Below, piece after piece: positions 6,039 through 47,363 of a stretch of 64,000 nt of DNA. The DNA comes from Sarea resinae. Its lineage: Eukaryota. The notes beneath the pieces were generated by a model. The model worked only from the letters and a program-made list of their open reading frames with translations, ran no database searches and was not told the origin of the DNA. Location of the stretch: positions 1-64,000 of the forward strand of contig JAPEUD010000103.1 in NCBI GenBank assembly GCA_026026165.1. The letters are read 5' to 3'. Within the stretch, counting starts at the first letter, position 1. The number at the start of each line of letters is the position of its first letter. The position numbers were made by a program, and so were the translations under genes.

Positions 6039-7416
6039 ATGTTTGCCTCCCGTCAGATGTTCGGCGCCGTCCAAAGACGAGCCTTCTCGGCTTCGGCCAG
6101 CCAGGTAAAGCTCTCATCTGCTTCCAAATGCTTCTTCCCGGCGCCGGTAAGGACCAGGAGGCTAACAACTGCCTTCCACAGTTATCCAAGGTCACCGTTC
6201 TCGGTGCCGCTGGTGGTATCGGTCAGCCGCTGTCTCTCCTGCTGAAGCTCAACCCGCGGGTCACCGAGCTGGCGCTTTACGATATCCGTGGTGCACCAGG
6301 TCAGTAGAACTCCGGTGCTTTTCCAATGGCGATTCGCGACAAGAAACTCATCTGCAAACCCAATTAGGTGTCGCGGCCGATATCAGCCACATCAACACCA
6401 AGAGCACTGTAAGCGTAAACGGACCTTCATCGAAGATGTTGATGCTAATATCAAAAGGTCACCGGCTACAACCCTACCCCATCAGAGCTCAAGGAAGCTC
6501 TATCGGGTACCGAGATCGTTCTCATCCCCGCCGGTGTGCCCCGGAAGCCTGGCATGACCCGTGATGGTAATGTTCTTAGCTCGTCAAAGCTCGGTGGACC
6601 AGATCTGACTGTCATGCAGATCTCTTCAACACGAACGCATCCATCGTCCGTGACCTAGCCAAGGCCGCCGCCGAATCTGCACCGGATGCCAACATCTTGA
6701 TCATCTCGAACCCTGTAAGTCAATCTTGCTGTCTCCTTGCAAAGATATAAATCTGATACACCAAAGGTCAACTCCACTGTCCCCATCACTGCCGAGGTCT
6801 TCAAGTCCAAGGGCGTCTATAACCCTAAGCGCCTCTTCGGTGTTACCACCCTCGATGTCGTTCGTGCTTCCCGCTTCCTCTCTCAGCTCAAGGGCACCGA
6901 CCCGGCCAACGAGAACGTCACCGTCATTGGTGGCCACTCGGGACACACCATTGTTCCCCTCCTCTCGCAGTCCACCGCTCCCGAGGTGTCCGGCCAGAAG
7001 CTCTCGGACTACATCAACCGAGTGCAATTCGGTGGTGATGAGGTCGTCAAGGCCAAGGATGGCGCTGGCTCTGCTACCTTGTCCATGGCTATGGCCGGTG
7101 CCCGATTCGCCGAGAGCTTGTTGAAGGCCTCCCAGGGCGTCAAGGGTGTCATCGAGCCCACCTTCGTTGACAGCCCTCTGTTCAAGGACCAAGGCATTGA
7201 CTTCTTCGCTTCCAAGGTCGAGCTCGGCCCGAACGGCGTTGAGAAGATTCACGAGATTGGCAAGGTCACTGAGGCGGAGCAGAAGCTTATCGACACCTGC
7301 TTAGTTGACCTGAAGAAAAACATCGAGAAGGGTTTGTCGCCCTTTCATCCTTCTATGCGGGTGCACTTATGCTAAAATCCTCCGCAGGTGTTGCTTTCGC
7401 CAAGGCGAACCCGTAA
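6039..7416 (+). CDS. MDH1: Mitochondrial NAD-dependent malate dehydrogenase (6 introns)
   Basis: Presequence [20 protein letters not shown]; motifs [47 protein letters not shown] and [13 protein letters not shown]. Confidence 0.96.
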
Positions 7417-18534: not shown

Positions 18535-20375
18535 CTAGTAGCGATACACGGGCCTCCCCTGCGCCTGCCCCTGCGTCTGCCCCTGTGAATGACCCCAAGC
18601 CTCCTGTACCCGTTGAGCCTCAGCTTGTCCGTCACCACCACCACCACCACCACTCACCCTACTGCCGCTATTGACATTCACATCATCCCCCAGAAGCCTA
18701 TCCTCGTAGATTCCCTCTGCCCCCGCTTCTCCTTCTCTTCCTTCGCCCACGGGAGCAACGGCAGACGGGACGGACGCGCCGTGCATGTTCACGTGGTCGA
18801 TGGCCGAGTCCTGGCGGTGAATGTACGATGGCGTACTCGTCGTGAGCTGGGGCGGGTGCGGTGGCGCTTGCGTCTGTGATGGCGGCTGGAGTGGTGGTTG
18901 TTGTTGTTGGTGGCCCGGCGGAGGGAGCGAAGGGGGCGAGTACTCAACTTCGGGACGGATCACGGGCTGGAGCGGCGGCTGGGCTGGCAGAGATGCTGAG
19001 GGCGGATCACTATAGTCCCAGGGCAGAGGCTCTTGCTCCTGCTGCTGTTGCTGTGGATGTGCGGCAGATGGTGGTGATGCCAGCGGGTGTTCGGCTTGCG
19101 AGGAGGCTGACGCGTCCAGAAAGGGGTTCTTCAAGAACGGATTCTTCGAAGTCGTCGTGGTGCCGTTCGTGCGCTGTGGAAGGCGTGGGAGCGGCGCAGC
19201 AGACGCCGGCACTTGCCCCTGCTCTTGTCCATTTACTAGAGACGATGGTGACGGCGACGGCGACGCGCTCTGCGAGCCCAGTGCTTTTCGCGCCTGCAGC
19301 ACGCCGCGCTGATACTTGCTCACGGCCACACTGAGCAACTCGTTGGTCTCAATCAGCGTGAGCATGGTGTCGTCGTCCGGGGGCGGGTCATCGGCGCCAA
19401 TGTACCCGTGGATCGATTTACTCGCCGATTGGCAGCGTTCAGCGAACTCCTTGAGGATATCACTAGCAAGAATCTCCGTGGTCGGAGTCGACTGGAGCAC
19501 TTGCGTCAGCAATTTGGCCGACGTTCTGGCTTCTTCGATGCGCGAGGCGAGTTCGTCAGGGTGGGGGAGCCCGGCGCGGGCCCTGTGGCGGCGGGCAAAG
19601 TAGTTGGCACTGTTAGGGTCGTAAGGAGGAGCATTGAGGGTGCGAGGAACGGGCGCCATGGGTTGACTCTGAGCAAGACGCTGCACGCCGGCTCGATTCT
19701 TTGCCTTCAATTTCTCCTTTTTCCACATCTCGCGCAGGCCCGTCAGCGTCTCATCATCTGGCTTCGACACCTCAAACGATTCCAACGTCTCCTGCAGGAT
19801 CTGCTGCACGTTCGCGTCCTTGGGATCCTTTAGGATTTCCTTGATGGTCGCGACAAACTTGGCATCGATGTTACGTGTGAATGCTTTGCCCGGATGGTCC
19901 GCCAGGATGCGGATCAGCATGATGGCGTTGTAACGAACGTGAGCTTTGCTGGGGTTGTCTTTGAGGCATTTGCGGATGACCGTCGCGGCTTCCTTTTGGG
20001 CCGCCGGGCTAGACTCGGCGGCATCCACGATAGCGGGGAGGTATAAGACTTCTTCATCCTATTGATTGATTGCGCCTTGTGAGCTGAAGCCCTATCTCAC
20101 GGCGCATGGTCCGGGGTTCCATACCTGATTATCTGGACCGCCGGATTCGCAAAAGAGTCTCTAGTCCTCGCATCAATAGAGTCCGGATTCAATGGATGAT
20201 CATGCCTACTATATTTCTGCCGATATTGGCCTCCGGGGCGTCGTCGTTAGGTGCTCTTGCATCTGGGTCTGTAGCCGCCGTTAGCTCCAGAGCTCTCGAT
20301 CTTGAAGCTATGATCTCACGTACTCTCGCGCTTCCTGCGAGAGCCCAACAACTTCGACATGACTTTATCAGCCAT
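18535..20375 (-). CDS. VHS/GAT-domain endocytic adaptor-like protein (3 short 5' introns; start 20375 or 20360)
   Basis: Spliced RLFCESGGPDNQ|DEEVLYLPAIVDAAESSPAA...YNAIMLIRILADHPG (VHS-like); ELASRIEEARTSAKLL...TLIETNELL (GAT); Pro/Gln-rich tail with two NPF motifs. Confidence 0.8.
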
Positions 20376-21177: not shown

Positions 21178-22480
21178 TCAGCCGCCTGTGCTCGAGTCCG
21201 GGCTATTGTCCGATTCCGCAATCGAATTTGACTTCAAGCCGACGCCCGCGGCCTTCATGGCTTCTATGGAGCCAACTAATCGCTCTCTCGCTGTCGTCAC
21301 GGCCACCATTCGGTCGGCCTCTGCTTCGATGGCATTTCTCAAAGTCCAATACGCGTCGTTGACAGCGACTATCGCTGCATCCTCGTAGTCGGGAGCAATC
21401 TTCTCGGCCGTAATCAACGCCTCCCTAGCATCGCGCAAGTCTTTCCAGTAGTTGGAGATGAGCTCCGGGTACGTCGTCTTTTCCAACTCCATATCCCACT
21501 CGTGGGGCTTCGTCTCGACGGTGGTAAGCCAACTCGACATGTGTCTCCAGCGATCATCCTCCAACCCAGGGAAGTGGACCAGTAAATCACCCTTCTTTCC
21601 TTCGTATCCGTGATGGAATTCATATGTGTTGAACCATGGCCGTGGCTGGTACAGAACACCGGAGCGGAATTCGGTCTCATTGAAAACGTATGCCATGGCG
21701 ACTTGGTCCATCGATACGCCGAGATCGATGTCTGGGTGGAACATCGGAAACGCCATTGCCTTGGTCAACATCCTGACGGACCATTCGTGAACATGAATAA
21801 AAAAGATGCCAGTGTTCAACCCATTTTGGTCCTTGTTGCCGATAAAGTGAACATTCGAGAAGTCCTCGGGCGGAAGAAAAATCTCGACGGGAAGAAGTTG
21901 ATTGATTATAATGGAATCGGCATCGACCCACCTGTTGCACACCAGATGTCAGCGTCACCCATTCACTCTCAATTGCCGCCAGTACGCCTACATGAGCCAT
22001 TGGGTCCTCTCGCCCGGCGGCTTCGCCAATTCATTGACGACGAGCGACAGTATATAGGCGGGCTTGTTCCAGTACCCCCCCGTAATCTCCTGGCGCAGCA
22101 CATGGACCGGATAGCCCAGCTTCTGGCCATGTTTGACATGGGTCCGGACGGCGCGTTCGTAGAGCTCATTGGGCTTGCCGTAGAGCATCGAGATCTTTCC
22201 TACTCTCGCCCCACCCTCGGGGCTGTATTGGCCCACAGAATACCGCGAAGCGCCATGGGTCGAGGACAGCGAGCGGAAGATGGCGATGGTGAAGAGGAAG
22301 ACAACGAGAGCGGCCAGCAGGCCACATGTCGGCGAACGCTGTCGAGGGAGTCAGCAATGGCTTGGGCCGATGTCTTGTAGAAGATGGATCATCACTATAG
22401 AGTTTCGGTTAGTATTCGTGTCTCGTGGTGAAGATGCAACGTGCGATGCAAGGAGGGCATTCCTCACCCTTGAACGGCAT
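21178..22480 (-). CDS. Glycosyltransferase family 34 (GMA12/MNN10-like)
   Basis: TM segment GLLAALVVFLFTIAIF; motifs WNKPAY, WLMWVDADS (DxD), GLNTGIFF, DQ and LLVHFPG. The 5' end requires a complex intron (see findings). Confidence 0.85.
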
Positions 22481-23611
22481 GTTTCTGAGAAGAATCCGGG
22501 CAGCGATAGGCGAAGACGCAGAGCGCCGAGACAACGAGCTGCAGCGTCAAAATGAAAGTTTGAGATTTTGAGACAGAGAACGGCGGCGAAAAGGGGAGAG
22601 CGGTGGGATCGAACATCTGGCGGAAAGAAGATGGGAGAAAGCGAGCGCACGGGAACGAGTCGGTGTCGTCTTACGGTGGTGACACCATCATCATCATCAT
22701 CCGAATCGCAGTATATGAGGGGGACGGCAGTCTGCTGGAAAGCGTGAAAGAGTGGAGGGCCTTAGAACGAAAACGTCTGTATCCAGCAAGAAGCTGCACC
22801 GCATCACAGCAACACAAAGCAACCACCTTGCCATGTCCGTCCCTACTAGTACCATTGGATGGTCAGGCCCGTTCCCATTCCCATTCAAGCCGACCCTGCA
22901 GGTGGTCGATGGTCTGCCCGCGTACCGTGACCTCCTCCCGTAGCCCGGGATTCTGGAGAGGTAGTGGCCCAAGTACCGTGTGCTGCGACGCCCCATACGA
23001 AAGCGACTTCGCCCGCGACCCTGAGACAGCGCCGCGAGCGCAAACGGACACGAAACACGACGAGACACGAGGTACCTCTACCGGGATACGTAATGATCTC
23101 GCGCGCCGCCCGTCAGAAAAGAAGAACCGGAGAGACGAAAAGGAGAGCAGCATACGCAGTGGTACTCAGGACTACTGCGGCCTGCCGAGGGGCGCGCCTG
23201 AGGGAGGTACTGCAGACCTCAGCTCGATACCTGACTCTACCGAGTAGAGTGATACCTCCCATCAAGCCTCAAGCAATGCTGGCATAACAATAGCATCAAT
23301 GATCCATCCTCTATCGATGGTGGGGGCTATCAATGGTGAGAGCCCTCGATGGCATCTCAGCTAGACCGTGGCACTGCCCTATGCCCTGTCACGCATCTTG
23401 ACAGCTCGAACCTCAGACAGGTACAGGTACCTTACCTCCAGCTTACTCTTCTCCCGTAGACGCGCAAGTCGGACTGTATACGAGGTATGCGAATACGACC
23501 ACCAGCGGCGTGGACCCGAAGCAAGTGCAATTCAGCTACTGGACGACAGCCATTTTGCCTAAAGCAGCCCGAGGTCATATGCTCTTCTAACCAGCTAGCC
23601 CGGGGATCACG

Positions 23612-23646
23612 ATGCGTATGCGTATGCGTATGCGTATGCGTATGCG
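23612..23646. repeat. (ATGCGT)n hexamer microsatellite
   Basis: About 6 tandem units. Confidence 0.9.
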
Positions 23647-24060
23647 TGCTTGGTTGCTTGGTCGTTCCCGAAATGCCGCCTAGTAGGCTTCAATGAGAAT
23701 CCTCTTTAGCAGTCTAGTTGTTCATTTGGCCCTCATCTCAGGTACCTATTCAGGTGGGCCTGGCTAGCATGTTGAGACCAATTGTCAACGCGTGCTCCAG
23801 AAGCTCTCGATAGAGTCCGCCACCAGAGTCGCACGGTCTCCAAGAGCGGGCAAGTATTGCAAGAGAAAATGAAGGACTTGATTTGAATGATGCGAATTCG
23901 TGATTCGTTTCATGTGCAAGAATGCGAGGAGTATATGTTTATACGCAATAAATCAACCCAGGAAAACCCAGCCCCCCCACTCAGCGCAATGTGGATGCCG
24001 CCACTATGCAACGCGATACAATGCAATCCCATCGCAGACCCAAAGACTCAAGAACTCCGT

Positions 24061-25981
24061 CTATTTTGTGCGCTCCGCCGATACCGACAAATCCGGCTCC
24101 TCATCCACCATATCTATACCCCCGTCCTCACTGCCCTCGATCGGGCTATGAATGAAGACACTGCGCGTCCACCCGTCGGCCTCGAGTCTCGTCTCCTTGA
24201 TCAGGCGATATCCCCCAATCTTCGGCAGCACGACAGCCCAGCCAACCCAGTATATCGCACCCGCCGCAAATATGCCCAGCGCAACAACACAATGGAGGTA
24301 GTATGGGAGATGTTTGTAGACGTTCTGGCCCGCGTCCGGGGGCACGTAGGGTGAAGCCACAAGGTAGAGGTTTGAGAGGAAGAAGAAGATGACGACGGGA
24401 AGAGTTGCGCGGATAGGAGGGTTCCAGTCGTGGAACTTCTTGCGGTTGAGGTAGATGTAGATAAGGCCGGCGGAGACAAAGGCGTTGACGATGGAGAGAG
24501 GATAGGAAATCAGGCTGTAAGGACATGTCGTTAGCAAGAGCTGAGATTGGAGCACGGCCAGGAGGGGAAACAAACTTGACGAGGAAGTTATAGGCGTCGC
24601 CAGGTGGAGGAGCGAGCAAAATGATCATGGACACGACCCAGTGCTCAAACAGACCCGCTGCGGGCGATTTGAAGGGTTTGTTACTGGCCCACAGCCGCGA
24701 CAAGGGTATGATGCCTTCACGGCCAAGCTCTTGAACAACTACAGCGGAGACAAGGTTAGCCAAATCGCCAAACCCTTGACGATCAAGATAAGCTTACTTC
24801 GGCCCTGGGAGAATATGACCGCCAAGACATTGCCAAATGCGGAGAGGGCCACGAAGACAGACAGAGCTCGCTCTGCCTGCTTGCCAAACACGTTTCGGAA
24901 GAACAAAGCTGCCACTGTGCGGCCCGAAGTCATGATGTCGGCTTTCGGGACCGCGGCAAAGTAAGCGATGTTGACCAACATATAGAAGATCCCGACAGTG
25001 ATGACGGCCAGTGGGGCAGCTATCTTGAGGGTTCGTTCTGGATTTCTGGTCTCGCTCAAAGCCTGTCCACAGTCAGCGGCCGGCTATAACTTAACCACGG
25101 GAGGGTCTCCGCACATAATTCGCGTTCGAGTAGCCTATGTAAGACCAGATGACGTTGTAAAGAGCCGTGACAATTCCATAGCCACTTCCTTTGGTTCCCT
25201 CGAAAGCGTTTGTGAAATTGTGAGGCTTGTCGATCTTCAAATGGCCTCCAAGAGCTGCGAACCCGGAACAAATAATGAAAATGATGATGACTAGCTTGAA
25301 GGTTCCGAGGACGTTTTGTAGCCGCAAGCCCCATTTCACAGCAAAGGAGTGAACCAAGAAGGCTGTCGTAAGGCAGGCCAGACCGATACCTCGCTGATTC
25401 CACCGGGTGACGTCTTTCTCTGCTGCCAGGAGGATATACTCTCCAAAGATCACGCTGTTCGAAGCGGCCCAGCCCAGCAAACACACGTAGGATGCAAACA
25501 TCGCAGTCGCGAGATACTTTGGTTTCGTGTAGACAAACTCCAGGTAGTTCTTCTCGCCCCCATTTCTTGACACTGTCAGCTGTCGTCTTGTCAAAGTTTC
25601 GGATGCTCAACATACCTTGGTATCGCGGTTCCAAACTCGAGATACACGGCCGTACCAGCCAGGGAGATGAGCATCCCGGCCACCCATATAAACAACGCAA
25701 GACCAACACTTCCAGTGAGAGAGAGAATAGTTCCAGGTGTTGCGAAGATACCAGTTCCAATGACCCGATTGAAGATTAAAAAGGTCGCGCTGACAACACC
25801 AATTTGCCGGCGGTCCTCAGGGGCCTGCATCAACAGATCCCCATCATCTGTAAAGCCATCAGCGGGGTTCTTGCAGATCGTAGCCGGTGTTCGTACGTGA
25901 ACTGGTCTCAATGAGGGAGGTTGCCCGATGTGAAGAAGGCTTGGGGGCGTGGCCAACGGCCACATCATCATATGTTCCCAT
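24061..25981 (-). CDS. APC-superfamily amino acid permease, high-affinity methionine permease (Mup1-like; 5 introns)
   Basis: Motifs FLIFNRVIGTGIFATP, YLEFGTAIPRNGGEKNYL, WSYIGYSNANY, QELGREG, LAPPPGDAYNF; about 12 TM segments. Confidence 0.88.
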
Positions 25982-27248
25982 TGCAAGGTCAAGAGGATGT
26001 CTCGTCGTATATTTGCTCGATGAATAAAGGTTCAACGGAGAACATGGGGCATCTTATATAATTCAACTGCATATCGCGTGCTCCGGAAATTCTCAGGTCA
26101 CGGTGGATCTTGGCTGTGGTGCGATCTGCCCAGGAGGATGATGCCTTGGTCCAAAATCCTCGGGCCAAATCTTACAGATGTCGTCGCTCCAAGAAGAACC
26201 TGACGATGAAGCGACTCTAACCGCTCTCCCGCTCCTTTGCACACCATTTGACGTTGCGTGGGGAGGCCCCAAGATCTTGTCGAGTCCATTTCGATACGCT
26301 GCAGACAAATCATTGCGCGCTTGCCATTGCATGTTGCGGGCTTCTAGAAAAAACATTTGAGCACCCTTGCGCATGCTTGACCGCAAGTGGCAGACTTGGT
26401 GCTGGACAGACGGACTTTTTACGTTTAGTTTGATCGTCACGGCCTAGTTGAAGCTTTATTCGGATCTTGGTCTCGTGGGGTCTCGATTGCGTGCGATTGC
26501 GAAGGGTTGACAACATGCTGCGGATTAGTCATCCACCGTGTCCCTGAATTGGGACCGAGGGACCTCAACCTTCAATGCCAAATGCCACGATCATAATCCA
26601 ATGGAAGGCTCCTGAGGGACGCAAATCACCAAGACTAGCATACCTTACCTACTATAGTAGACCCTCCCCGAGACCCTACTAGGATGACCCAACGTTACAT
26701 CCGGACCGCTTGCCCCTACTATCCCACGTCTCATTGTTGAGTCAACTTCCATGCCATCCATGAATATTTACCATCTCGTGCTTGAATCCTTCGAGGCCTA
26801 TCACTCCACGACTGCACTCCAGGGATCCAAAGCGGTCAACCTTTCATTAGTCGTAGTCTTCTGGGTCTCTCGATCCGAGTATTTGTCGCGAATGGCAGAA
26901 AACCAATGAGTCTGCATCAGACCATGAATGCTTGATCGTCCCGAAGCTGCATGTTGTCTGGCTTCTAGCCTTCTAGAGGCTGATGGACACCCCTGAGTGG
27001 CTTTCTAGAAGCTCCAAAGATGAGGTGAACGCACGTACTGATAGTACTTCCGTTTCCGAAGAGCAGAGCCCGGTGACCATAGACCGACCCTAAGCGTCCC
27101 GCCGCTGCAGGCTGCAGCCCTAAATCCAACAAGGAGGAAGGTGCTCCGTGATTCTCGCTCATGAACATTCTCTCATGCATCTTGGTAACCACCATGGGTG
27201 AAAATTTTTTCTGTCTTACAACAATGGTAGAGCAGGCTGAAAGCAATT

Positions 27249-28340
27249 TCAGTCTACATCCGGCACAGGAAGGCCATCTAACAATTCGACTTTTCGCCCC
27301 AGAGCTCTCAAAGCCTCCATAGATCTCTCGCACCGCAAATCAAAGGACTCTTTCTCCGAGATCAAGACGAAGTCATAAGTAAGCAGTGGCGAGCCCGGCT
27401 TCACGTCGTACTTCTTTGCAGTCTCGGCGTCTACTACTGAATAGTCGACGATTAACGAGTTCTTGACGCCAAAAACTGCGTCGGACGTCTCGTATGGGTC
27501 ACCGCGGATGTAGAGGGCTCTATTTTAGATGCGTTCAGAGGGAAGATCTTTTGGAAGAGTGACGGGAGAACATACGTGATAAGATGATCCCAGCCAGGTT
27601 TTTGGAACATGAAATGCATATGGGCCGGCCTGTATGCATGTCGGTGGAGCTTCAGTAGAAGCTTACCCACAGGACCATCGTGCGGAATGGGATACGAAAC
27701 GGGCTTGATGGCTTTGAACCAGAAAATACCATCTTTGTCGCTCTTCATCACGCAGCGCCCATCTGGTCCCTCCCTATCTGCATACTGGACGTCATAATGT
27801 CCTGAGGAATCCGTTTCCCAGATGTCGATCTTAACCCCTTCAATCGGTTCTCCGTGCTTGTCTTTGACATTGCAAACAACCAGACATGGCTCGCCTTTTG
27901 GATCATGGGTCATCGTTTCTCCATTTGCCATATCTTCCGCTTCATGAGAGTGAAAGGGACCAAGGACTGAGCCTTCAGTGGAGTGTGGGGGCTTGGGGTG
28001 GTCGATGGAGTCAACGAGTAGGGAAAGGCCAAGGATATCAGATAGGAGAATGAATTCCTTGGGCGAATTAGCTCCTGCAGCGTACGAGCTGAACGTCGCA
28101 TACCTGTCGAACATCGCTACAGATCTGTCCAGTCGCCGTCAAAAATTCCAACGCCGTCATCCATTCCTTCGTGCTCAAGCGGGTCTCTCGTGCAAAATCG
28201 TGAAGATGAGTAACCAGCCTTTCCAAAAGATACGTAAGCCGTCGATCCGGACTTTGCGAGTTGATGATGATAGTGTTCTCGGTGATATTGTCAATATTCA
28301 AGTCCTTCATAGGAGGAAGGTTGACCTTTGAGGGATCCAT
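27249..28340 (-). CDS. Intradiol ring-cleavage dioxygenase (catechol/hydroxyquinol 1,2-dioxygenase; 2 introns)
   Basis: LHDFARETRL, RQEFILLSDILG, TEGSVLGPF, GHYDVQY, YPIPHDGPVG, RPAHMHF (Fe ligands), SDAVFGVK. Confidence 0.93.
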
Positions 28341-31323: not shown

Positions 31324-31839
31324 ATGTCCGAACGGGGTAGCTTTCGCGGCGGTGGCCGGGGTGGTGGTAGGGGAGATGGAGGGCAGAGGGGCGGACGTGG
31401 AGGAGGAGGACCTCGCGGTGGAGGTCACGGCGGAGGCCAGCAGGAACGTCCGAAGAAGGAAAACATCTTGGACCTGACCAAGTATATGGACAAGGAGATT
31501 ACCGTCAAGTTCAATGGAGGCAGAGAAGGTATACTGAGACGATTTCGGACCACGCATCGGAGACTGGGCTAACTAGCTCGTTCAACACAGTGATTGGCAC
31601 ATTGAAGGGGTACGACCAGCTGATGAACCTGGTATTGGACGACGTGAAAGAGTTGATGAGAGGTATGGCGACGGATCCATCTTGCGCACTCGAAGCTAAC
31701 GGGATCGCTAGATGACGAAGGTAATGAATCATCTCGTCCGCTTGGGCTCATTGTCGCACGAGGCACGCTCCTTGTTCTGATCTCCCCGGTCGACGGGAGT
31801 GAAGAGATTGCAAACCCTTTCGTGCAGCAGGAAGAATGA
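31324..31839 (+). CDS. LSM7: U6 snRNA-associated Sm-like protein Lsm7 (2 introns)
   Basis: RGG-rich N-terminus, then KKENILDL.KYMDK.I.VKFNGGRE|VIGTLKGYDQLMNLVLDD...LGLIVARGT...EEIANPF. Confidence 0.96.
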
Positions 31840-44690: not shown

Positions 44691-47363
44691 ATGGCATCCC
44701 CACTTGGGGCATCTCCAGGCCAAGGGCGCAGGGCTGTGGCTTCCCCGCGCCCCCGGACCCGCGGTATGTCGTCCTCCAGAGGGCTCCAAGCATCAATGCC
44801 CGAGTAGACTGATCGCGCATGCTCATGGGGGATAGAAAATGCAAAAGATACCCTTTGCAGAAATATCACCATTTATGGACACTGTCGATACGAGGACAAA
44901 GGTCATTGCTTCGCGTCTCATATCCCTTTCGCGCTTGCTGATCTCTCACAGGATGCGTCTTCAACCACGACCCATCCAGAGCAAATATACCATCAACACA
45001 AGCAGACAGGTTCGTGAGGAACGTATTCGGGTGGAGCAGTTGACTGACCGCGCCGGCCTTTCAGCTTGAAGAAACGACTCAATGTTGATTCTCCAACTTT
45101 TACCCCTTCATCATTAACCAGTAACGGGACCAGTATGAAGAGTACCATCATATCACCCAAGACCGCCCACGCAGCGCCTTTTACCCCCAAGGGCTCCAGT
45201 ACAGGTCTGTTTGATAACTTGATCAAGGCGTAATTTGAAAAGTATTTCTGCTTACGTTCAATGGCAGGCTTATCTACTCCAGTGCAACAAGAAAGTAGCG
45301 GCGGCTCAGAATGGCCGTATCAGGAAGTAGCGGAATTCGTCCCCCAGGCTTTTGACACTTTGCAAATGGTACGTATTGACATCTTTTACTTTCGCCTTAG
45401 TCAATCCCCTTAGTATTGCGGTCACTCGCTGGTCATTGTTGTTCTCCATACGCCAATATCAGCGTATTTGACGCGCTGTGGTAAATCCTCAAATCTTTTT
45501 CCTCTTTTATTCATGGAATGGCGAAGTCGGAAGGAAGACAGTGGCGCAGCCGTGGGCACCCGCGCTCCCGACTTTTCGGCTTCTACAACGATGATCTTCA
45601 GGGTGCTGGCGCGTCGAGAGTGTTTTCTGATCCATTGTCTTTGAGACCAATCAACTCAATCCCTGCACCTTCTTTCGGGCTCGACTCCCATGACCAGCGT
45701 TACGATCTAACGCATCATCAGGGCGATGCCAGTGCGACAGGGAACTTTGCCGACCCATTCTCCTCAAACGCTCCGGCGGCACTGGGCGGCATTAATACGG
45801 CCAATGCTCAAGCTCATCTCAATCCGTACGCACAAGATGCCGCAGGCCTCGGTGGTGCCGCGTATTATCAAGGGCAAGGCACTTTCACACAGCCGGTATG
45901 GACATTGCCCTCCAGGACTATCAGGTACAATTCTAAGGCATACAGCTTCAATACCATCTATATGCCCCCTTGGGTCCTCATCGAGAAAATCTACCAGCTT
46001 ATCAACGAACTGCTCATGACTTCTTTATCTCCGACAGCCTCAGAGAGGAACTGCAACGCAAAGCCGAAGCTTCTCACCAAGTATTACCAAGTATGGCTGC
46101 TCCAGTGGTTGAAGGCCAGATCTGACAAGTACTAGACTCATCGCTTCCCCAACTTGAGCATTTTCATTCTCTCGTGCCTCTGGATACTACCAATCAGAAA
46201 AGTGTGGCCGCTTTTGGATATCCCAGCTGGATATACAAGGCTACGTCTAGCAAGGACGGCAACTACTATGCTTTGAGAAGGCTCGAAGGTAATTCTTATG
46301 GCATTTTACAAGAGGGATCGCTAATCAGGTCACAGGCTACCGATTAACCAACGAGAAGGCCATAAGGTCCGCGCAATCGTGGAAGAGAGTCAGCAATGGA
46401 AGCATCGTCACCTTGCACGACGCGTTTACCAGTCGTCAGTTTGGAGACAGCTCGCTTATATTTGTCACCGACTATCATCCGCTATCGAAGACGCTTGCTG
46501 AGCACCATTTCCCCTCTACTCGATTCCAAGGTCGCCCCGCTGGAGGTCACGTACCGGAGCAAGTATTGTGGAGCTATGTCATGCAGATATCATCCGCACT
46601 CAAGGCAATCCACGATGCCGGCCTCGCTGCCAGGATCATTGATGCAAGCAAGATTCTACTAACCTCAAAGAATCGCGTCCGCCTCAACGCATGTGGCATC
46701 CTCGACGTTGTCCAATACGACACCAGCGCCACGATAGCCGACTTGCAACGTGAAGACCTCATGCAGCTTGGCCGGCTCCTCCTTTGCATCTCCACCAGCA
46801 ACCAAGGAGCGCTGCACAACATACCGAAAGCGCTTGAATACATCAGCCGCTCCTACACGGCTCCTTTCAAGGATTGCATCTTCTGGCTGCTTGACACGTC
46901 CGCATCCCAGGGTACAAAGGACATCGACCGGTTTATGACAGGACTCGCCCCTCAGTTCCTCAAAAGCTTCGACCATACTCTCCACCTGGATGACCAACTC
47001 AACACCGAGCTAAGCCGTGAGCTTGAGAATTCCCGACTCCTCCGTCTGACGATGAAACTTAATTTCATCACCGAGAGGCCTGAATTCGAACACGATCGCC
47101 AGTGGTCCGAAACGGGGGACCGCTACCTACTCAAACTGTTCCGCGACTACACGTTCCACCAAGTTGATGCGCAGGGAAATCCCGTCGTGGACCTTGGGCA
47201 CGTTTTGACCTGCTTGAATAAGTTGGATGCAGGGATCGAGGAGAGGATTAGTCTTGTCAGTCGCGATGAGCAAAACTGTTTCATCATCAGTTACCGCGAG
47301 CTGAAAAGACAGGTGGAGGCCGCCTTTCAGGATTTGTTAAAGGCAGGCCGGCGGACGGCATGA
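44691..47363 (+). CDS. PAN3: PAN2-PAN3 deadenylase subunit Pan3 (~8 introns)
   Basis: C3H zinc finger LCRNITIYGHCRYEDKGCVFNHD, PAM2-like LNVDSPTFTP, pseudokinase (YALRRLEG, FVTDYHPLSKTL), ELENSRL and WSETGDRY knob domain. Confidence 0.96.

Follow-up and report, generated by a model that had tools for sequence, protein, structure and literature searches.

A very probable [D1,2] spliceosomal twin intron ahead of the membrane-anchor codons of a GT34 gene in Sarea resinae

Spliceosomal twin introns (stwintrons) of the [D1,2] type, in which an inner intron splits the outer donor after its G1, are well described, with more than 100 in one Hypoxylon genome. Among the best comparable cases are the ancient one of lipS (A. 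nidulans AN7524; PMC5639578) and that of dhaoS (PMC5587772), which according to these reports have short constituent introns, keep their position across distant fungi, were missed by annotation, have been lost in some lineages and were verified on cDNA. For them, published fates comprise complete disappearance, loss of the inner intron and a shift between [D1,2] and [A2,3]. The unique [D1,2] stwintrons of Hypoxylon sp. CO27-5 (PMC9024468) share a five-element layout, are present in single copy with the position conserved without sequence similarity, and range from 114 to 313 nt; in the same report it was pointed out that annotation software misses [D1,2] stwintrons. On the other hand, the propagating sister [D1,2] stwintrons of Xylariales (PMC12403724, PMC8469720) occur as sequence-similar copies with near-terminal inverted repeats, and may be misspliced in one step, leaving one G. 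No stwintron in a GT34 or other glycosyltransferase gene was found in the literature, where the tables of PMC12403724, PMC8469720 and PMC6616335 could list one; likewise, a term search of the Hypoxylon stwintron table (PMC9024468), which is possibly incomplete, gave no GT34 gene among the entries searched. For the classes of the fungal group to which Sarea belongs, the stwintron literature named Xylonomycetes once among the matches listed. Here we describe a locus of Sarea resinae that probably contains a further [D1,2] stwintron of this known but uncommon arrangement, for which one more example is unsurprising.

The window analysed comprises 64,000 nt of S. resinae (assembly GCA_026026165.1, contig JAPEUD010000103.1, positions 1–64,000, forward strand), and the gene is read from its minus strand. 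The coding part of exon 1 (22469–22480) encodes Met-Pro-Phe-Lys, ends in AAG and has an A at position -3 of the ATG. It is followed by a single G (22468), by a complete inner intron of 73 nt (22395–22467) with the donor GTGAGG and the branch site ACTAAC (22413–22408) placed 10 nt before the acceptor TAG, and by a remainder of 56 nt (22339–22394) that starts with TGATG and carries the branch site GCTGAC (22355–22350) 8 nt before the acceptor CAG; counting G 22468, this outer segment measures 57 nt. All these elements had been reported in a first-pass annotation, and each was found on the minus strand at the positions given there. Exon 2 (21992–22338) encodes the membrane anchor (about 22326–22276), the stem and the start of the GT34 fold, and includes an internal ATG at 22188. 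An ordinary phase-2 intron of 60 nt (21932–21991), located just 5' of the W-V-D-A-D motif and shared in position by 13 of 16 metagenome loci compared, separates it from exon 3 (21178–21931), which encodes the GT34 catalytic domain (PF05637, E 9.5e-09; 155 homologues) and the stop codon.

The 130 nt from 22468 to 22339 very probably constitute a phase-0 [D1,2] stwintron of a Golgi-type GT34 gene, removed in two steps. This reading, already put forward in the first-pass annotation, is built on what is observed of the layout, the reading frames, the U1 sequence, the use of donors in the window and the layout in relatives, and it draws its support from a unique in-frame model, the recurrence of the layout in relatives and the use of this donor type in the genome. 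As in lipS and dhaoS, G1 and T2 of the outer donor are separated by the inner intron and both constituents are short; as in the unique stwintrons of Hypoxylon, the layout has five elements, and the total size falls within the Hypoxylon range. The element starts with GGT (G 22468 plus GTGAGG), and the inner U2 intron, with 73 nt, has the length of at least 42 nt that goes with the type. According to the proposed route, the spliceosome would begin with the strong donor GTGAGG and the branch site and acceptor closest to it, and by removing 73 nt would join G 22468 to TGATG; the donor thus formed would stand behind the exon end AAG, which matches the genome's own U1 at positions -3 to -1 and would compensate for the absent +5G, as in the AG|GU class of donors. 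With the second splice 57 nt would be taken out and Lys4 fused to Arg5, which keeps both the anchor and the catalytic domain in frame. The order would be set by intron definition, and failures would end in early stops; we infer both splices and their order, as well as the degradation of the dead-end products left by inner-only or one-step removal.

Translation of the different RNAs agrees with this proposal, and here too the effects on the frame had been correctly anticipated. The unspliced RNA would give 23 aa. Removal of the inner intron alone gives a product of 18 aa that stops at the TGA at 22353–22351, a codon that sits within the outer branch site GCTGAC; one-step removal of 22467–22339 leaves one extra G, which shifts the frame and gives 61 aa; complete removal, together with the second intron of the gene, yields 370 aa with the anchor helix and the GT34 domain. 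Therefore, the frame is restored by complete removal only (370 versus 18 and 61 aa). Models consisting of an ATG with zero introns, a single GT-AG intron or a single nested pair were enumerated over the 700 nt upstream of the internal ATG; the nested pair was the only in-frame anchored model with standard-like GT donors, and ATG 22480 was the only start codon yielding an anchored in-frame product. From the in-frame TGA down to 22250, a stretch that runs up to and through the anchor codons, the AG at 22339 is the sole one, so that any spliced anchored protein must use this acceptor. From these results two-step splicing appears to be necessary for the membrane anchor. The first-pass annotation had also described the outer donor as newly created by the first splice. 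It is the putative donor of the second splice; however, the hexamer GTGATG is already present in the pre-mRNA, where, as in any [D1,2] stwintron, it borrows its G from the inner TAG (22395), with ATA as exon-side bases. With this pre-mRNA donor and one intron, the enumeration found no ATG in frame.

A different possibility is that the 129 nt of 22467–22339 are removed in one step and that translation begins elsewhere: far upstream in another exon, at a codon other than ATG, or at the internal ATG 22188, in which case the protein would have no anchor. The frame is open from 22761 to 22351 and contains six near-cognate codons, one-step missplicing of [D1,2] stwintrons is documented (PMC12403724), and the NCBI model for this locus (P0001) does start at the internal ATG. 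Nevertheless, no ATG lies upstream of the donor in that frame, and the codons for the anchor are undamaged and can be aligned to those of relatives. When the enumeration was loosened to admit GC donors and two introns and extended back to 24060, the two-intron models that rescue the frame through the donor at 22467 or 22395 required introns of 361–383 nt with GC donors. This explanation is consequently regarded as very unlikely.

The looser enumeration added one further model, a single GC-AG intron of 106 nt from the donor ATC|GCACGT at 22444 to the acceptor at 22339, with a first exon of 12 residues in frame; once GC donors are allowed, it is the sole one-intron in-frame model. GC donors that lack AG on the exon side are poor. 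The candidate is of this kind, and PMC11732430 describes such sites as poor in human genes; moreover, its use would bypass a strong donor 23 nt upstream as well as the branch site and acceptor in between, and a GT donor is retained at the inner position in all relatives that have the nested layout described below. We consider this model extremely unlikely.

The strict [D1,2] motif published for Hypoxylon, with its 24 donors (PMC9024468), has no match at the Sarea site, because neither GTGAGG nor GTGATG is among these donors; this fungus belongs to a different class, and both Sarea donors are beyond its search model. Likewise, AAG|GTGATG is outside both the GURWGY consensus and the 24 hexamers, a list that serves as a search model and is not a definition of the class. 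A relaxed nested motif, written after this site had been seen, gave one match in the 64-kb window, compared with a mean of 0.017 matches in 60 Markov resamples, and none of 300 shuffled versions of the 400 nt that end at the outer acceptor gave a frame-aware nested model. The one RNA run found (X1), analysed as contigs of a closely related strain, covers exon 3 and a neighbouring intron and has zero depth from 21876 to 22643, which speaks neither for nor against splicing. Elsewhere in the window, a contig of the same run confirmed a 56-nt intron, GTATGT..TAG, at 27520–27575 of the minus strand.

Another aspect of the outer donor is its pairing with U1. The two U1 genes of this genome (L029 and L030) both begin with AUACUUACCUU, for which the ideal donor site is AAG|GTAAGTAT and position -3 of the donor pairs with A; CUG is the more familiar ending. 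The donor formed by the first splice, AAG|GTGATG, has eight Watson-Crick matches to this U1. Its computed duplex energy was -6.5 kcal/mol, compared with -1.7 when the hexamer is taken in the unspliced RNA and -9.7 calculated for the inner donor. It had been claimed that other donors of the window also lack +5G. The type is confirmed by two introns of the plus strand, whereas the three hexamers offered as examples are not: GTCATT appears once in the list of donors (9939), and GTAATG and GTATTA are absent from it. The first of the confirmed introns belongs to Lsm7 (31529–31590), with the donor GTATAC after the exon end AAG and its ends fixed by Pfam positions 2–20 and 22–44; the second belongs to Pan3 (46289–46335), with GTAATT after AAG, and is fixed by residues 40–89 and 91 onward of 4cyi. 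Both fit the AG//GU class of donors, which PMC11732430 describes mainly from human, plant, worm and yeast data. These cases support the view that AG|GTGATG-like donors are of a type that the Sarea genome uses. A donor without +5G after exon AG was also seen in an intron at 6105–6181 (plus strand) of what is probably a malate dehydrogenase gene, with homology support on the downstream side only.

Judged on its predicted elements, the Sarea stwintron has every sequence-level feature of the [D1,2] type except the consensus at +5, and in this it departs from lipS and dhaoS, whose stwintrons are cDNA-verified while the Sarea case is known from sequence and comparison. If the reading is true, a donor of the AG|GU class without +5G can act as the outer donor of a stwintron, and published motif searches would therefore undercount these introns.

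A metagenome scan provided 21 loci with 44–54% identity to the window's protein, values that suggest deep divergence. Left out of these were L015 and L021, whose printed 5' sequence is the same as that of L014 and L020, L016, which has no 5' end, and L023, a distant fragment; L005 and L019 offer just 154 and 95 nt of upstream sequence. The first-pass annotation had suggested aligning orthologues to look for a phase-0 intron at this position; the layout does recur there in three of 17 loci, L008, L010 and L020. With the same enumerator, a nested phase-0 model directly before the anchor was obtained for 4 of 18 sequences, i.e., the window and these three loci, all with G at the position of G1; L003 has the nested layout with T in its place. 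Shuffled sequences gave such a model in 0 cases for the window, 2 for L008, 0 for L010, 1 for L020 and 0 for L003, each out of 300. All five sequences fall within one clade of 24 rows (SH-aLRT 99) in a quick tree on which orthology rests and whose midpoint root is for drawing only. Among the 10 loci of the other clade, one of them with only 95 nt upstream, none yields a nested model, and in L006 and L007, of the same clade as the window, both this intron and the second intron of the gene have been lost. No similarity of intron sequence was found between these relatives and the window. From this distribution the position of the stwintron is probably conserved, and probably old within one GT34 subfamily.

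The relatives admit more than one reading. L008 gives the single match to the strict [D1,2] motif in the 78,300 bases of the 21 loci, and its outer segment has 59 nt, so that inner-only splicing would shift its frame; this locus can also be read unspliced in frame, and there is an in-frame ATG within its outer segment. The outer segments of L010 and L020 are multiples of three, stop-free and have weak donors (GTTCGG and GTACTT), so an ordinary phase-1 intron suffices there too. In view of these alternatives, the relatives show a common layout and not splicing. In L008, L010 and L020 the outer intron is possibly optional; if it were retained, or translation began within it, the cytosolic tail before the anchor would be longer. 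A second ATG is kept 8 nt upstream of the likely start in L003 (L003:2701) and L010 (L010:971); with this start codon, taking out both segments in one step would keep the frame.

A trace of the outer acceptor region was also looked for in proteins. The motif L[TI]-x-x-[QK], which a branch site, a spacer of 7 nt and an acceptor would be expected to encode at phase 0, stands just before the anchor exon in the exon-2 open reading frames of 8 of 21 close relatives and in none of 47 others. This signature was defined post hoc, and two of its eight carriers, which are 52–78% identical among themselves, are the L008 and L020 genes themselves. In a further set of 121 proteins, 58 were scorable and none was positive; being more distant, these give background only. 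The sequence marker used for grouping is not specific to the clade, and none of the 26 distant proteins with the marker carries the signature. An ordinary phase-0 intron of 54 nt before the anchor of L012 (2773–2826), a long branch of the other clade, was not counted; it may or may not be at the same position as the stwintron.

In one clade, formed by L003, L010, P0124 and P0125, the outer segment is predicted to code for a tail of 22–23 codons, with the inner intron as an ordinary phase-1 intron. A comparison of L003 and L010 revealed 44/69 identical positions in the outer segment, versus 22/49 in the core of the inner intron and 27/59 in that of the second intron. By codon position, 16, 18 and 10 of 22 sites of the outer segment are identical, and of its 14 identical residues 6 are kept through a silent change. 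P0124 and P0125 retain the same outer-segment peptide, P0125 with Met at the Gln codon of the acceptor. An Arg codon precedes the acceptor in all five DNA sequences, a different codon in each, and Arg is found there in 4 of the 8 signature proteins, which may hint at lasting or recent coding use of the segment.

These data bear on the possibility that in Sarea only the 73-nt intron is real, as an ordinary phase-1 intron, and that the 57 nt are exon, with the TGA being a nonsense allele or an assembly error; the gene would then be broken or its tail 19 residues longer. The segment is indeed exactly 19 codons with one stop, the matching segments of L003, L010 and L020 are multiples of three without stops, coding constraint is seen between L003 and L010, and run X1 has zero reads over the TGA. 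However, this triplet lies inside a consensus branch site 8 nt before CAG, where relatives keep branch site and acceptor, the gene shows no damage elsewhere, and no second member of its subfamily was found in the genome. Such an explanation is judged to be highly unlikely for Sarea, where the nested intron is retained as the preferred reading.

Because the outer segment is under coding constraint in one clade, it would have switched between intron and coding exon. In Sarea it would have to be an intron, in L008, L010 and L020 it may be optional, and in L003, L010, P0124 and P0125 it would be fixed as coding sequence. This scenario is put forward tentatively, with slightly less than even confidence. 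The finding that the segment length is a multiple of three in four of five sequences is weak evidence, since L003 and L010 are close kin. Two routes can be envisaged. In the first, the stwintron decayed through exonisation of the outer intron, by which the intron moved one base and a tail was added; in the second, stwintrons arose by intronisation of the start of an exon behind a G|T junction. Given that the twin layout is present in Sarea, outside the subclade, and in L008, inside it, exonisation in one clade is the simpler reading, with repeated intronisation as a possible alternative. Repeated recent intronisation as the sole explanation is further weakened by the fixed-phase signature of branch site and acceptor, because it is common to relatives that are 52–78% identical.

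The intronisation of adjoining exon sequence has been named previously, as have cropped introns whose G1 was exonised (PMC8469720), and intronisation around existing twin introns is discussed in PMC6616335 and PMC7138796. The published fates of stwintrons are those mentioned above for lipS and dhaoS (PMC5639578, PMC5587772), in contrast with a GT34 clade that keeps the inner intron and is predicted to code with the outer segment; in the passages of the stwintron literature that deal with fates, no case was found in which the inner intron stays and the outer segment becomes coding, and a search combining spliceosomal twin intron with exonization had no literature match. The relatives thus present several states at one position, namely a needed twin intron, a possibly optional outer intron, a coding outer segment and no intron, which makes it a small testable case of exchange between intron and exon and bears on how introns are gained and lost.

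Compared with the sister stwintrons of Xylariales, the Sarea stwintron shares the splice type and the possibility of one-step missplicing that leaves one G, and shows neither of their other features. A search of the genome for similar copies, which may miss diverged ones, gave one match, the element itself, and no terminal inverted repeat was found in it. Its folding is no better than that of shuffled sequences (z -1.26); in the predicted structure, not significant overall, the first 8 bases, which include the inner donor, pair about 30 nt downstream (22468–22428, minus strand). A genome-wide burst of [D1,2] elements with GTRAGT, the commonest type, as outer donor received no support, with 13 central motifs against 21 in the control and none of the 13 complete. 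The shift between [D1,2] and [A2,3] was excluded as a route at this site, as the base after the acceptor is C (rule taken from PMC5639578).

With regard to the product, the window's gene belongs, by its predicted sequence, to a divergent GT34 subfamily and encodes a putative glycosyltransferase. Like other members of the family (PF05637, GMA12/MNN10), it has a Pfam match above the cut-off, an N-terminal hydrophobic helix and a D-x-D motif; the match is weak, at 35.8 bits for a cut-off of 23, versus 147–154 bits for the other two GT34 genes of the genome, and no paralogue of the subfamily was found elsewhere in that genome. In the 370-aa product, hydropathy predicts a type II membrane anchor near the N-terminus, i.e., a hydrophobic helix at residues 9–25 with a 17-residue mean of 2.81. 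The database protein identical to the product of the locus, M1819_000513 (P0001), has 316 aa, begins at the internal ATG 22188 and has no hydrophobic anchor, which full-length homologues carry. The nested intron would explain this mis-annotation, because the public model is the one that lacks the anchor. Two annotated homologues, P0023 and P0028, also start without anchor at an internal methionine (MLYG), and may reflect the same annotation failure; P0023 bears the label of a tree protein and is positioned in the tree with fungal sequences.

Upstream of the GT34 start, an (ATG)5 run is followed by a strong GTAAGA donor (22700–22539, minus strand). A possible intron of 136 nt, GTAAGA..TTTGAC..CAG (22539–22674), is inferred 3' of this run. 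It may belong to the 5' UTR, or else its use would extend the protein by 28 in-frame codons, and the stwintron would still be required. The gene is flanked by a VHS/GAT-domain gene (18535–20058) and an amino acid permease gene (24061–26031), both on the minus strand. Neither adjoins the GT34 gene in the 21 metagenome loci, where no gene neighbours shared with the window were found. Also upstream of the gene, at 23612–23647 of the window, there is a hexamer repeat with six perfect copies.
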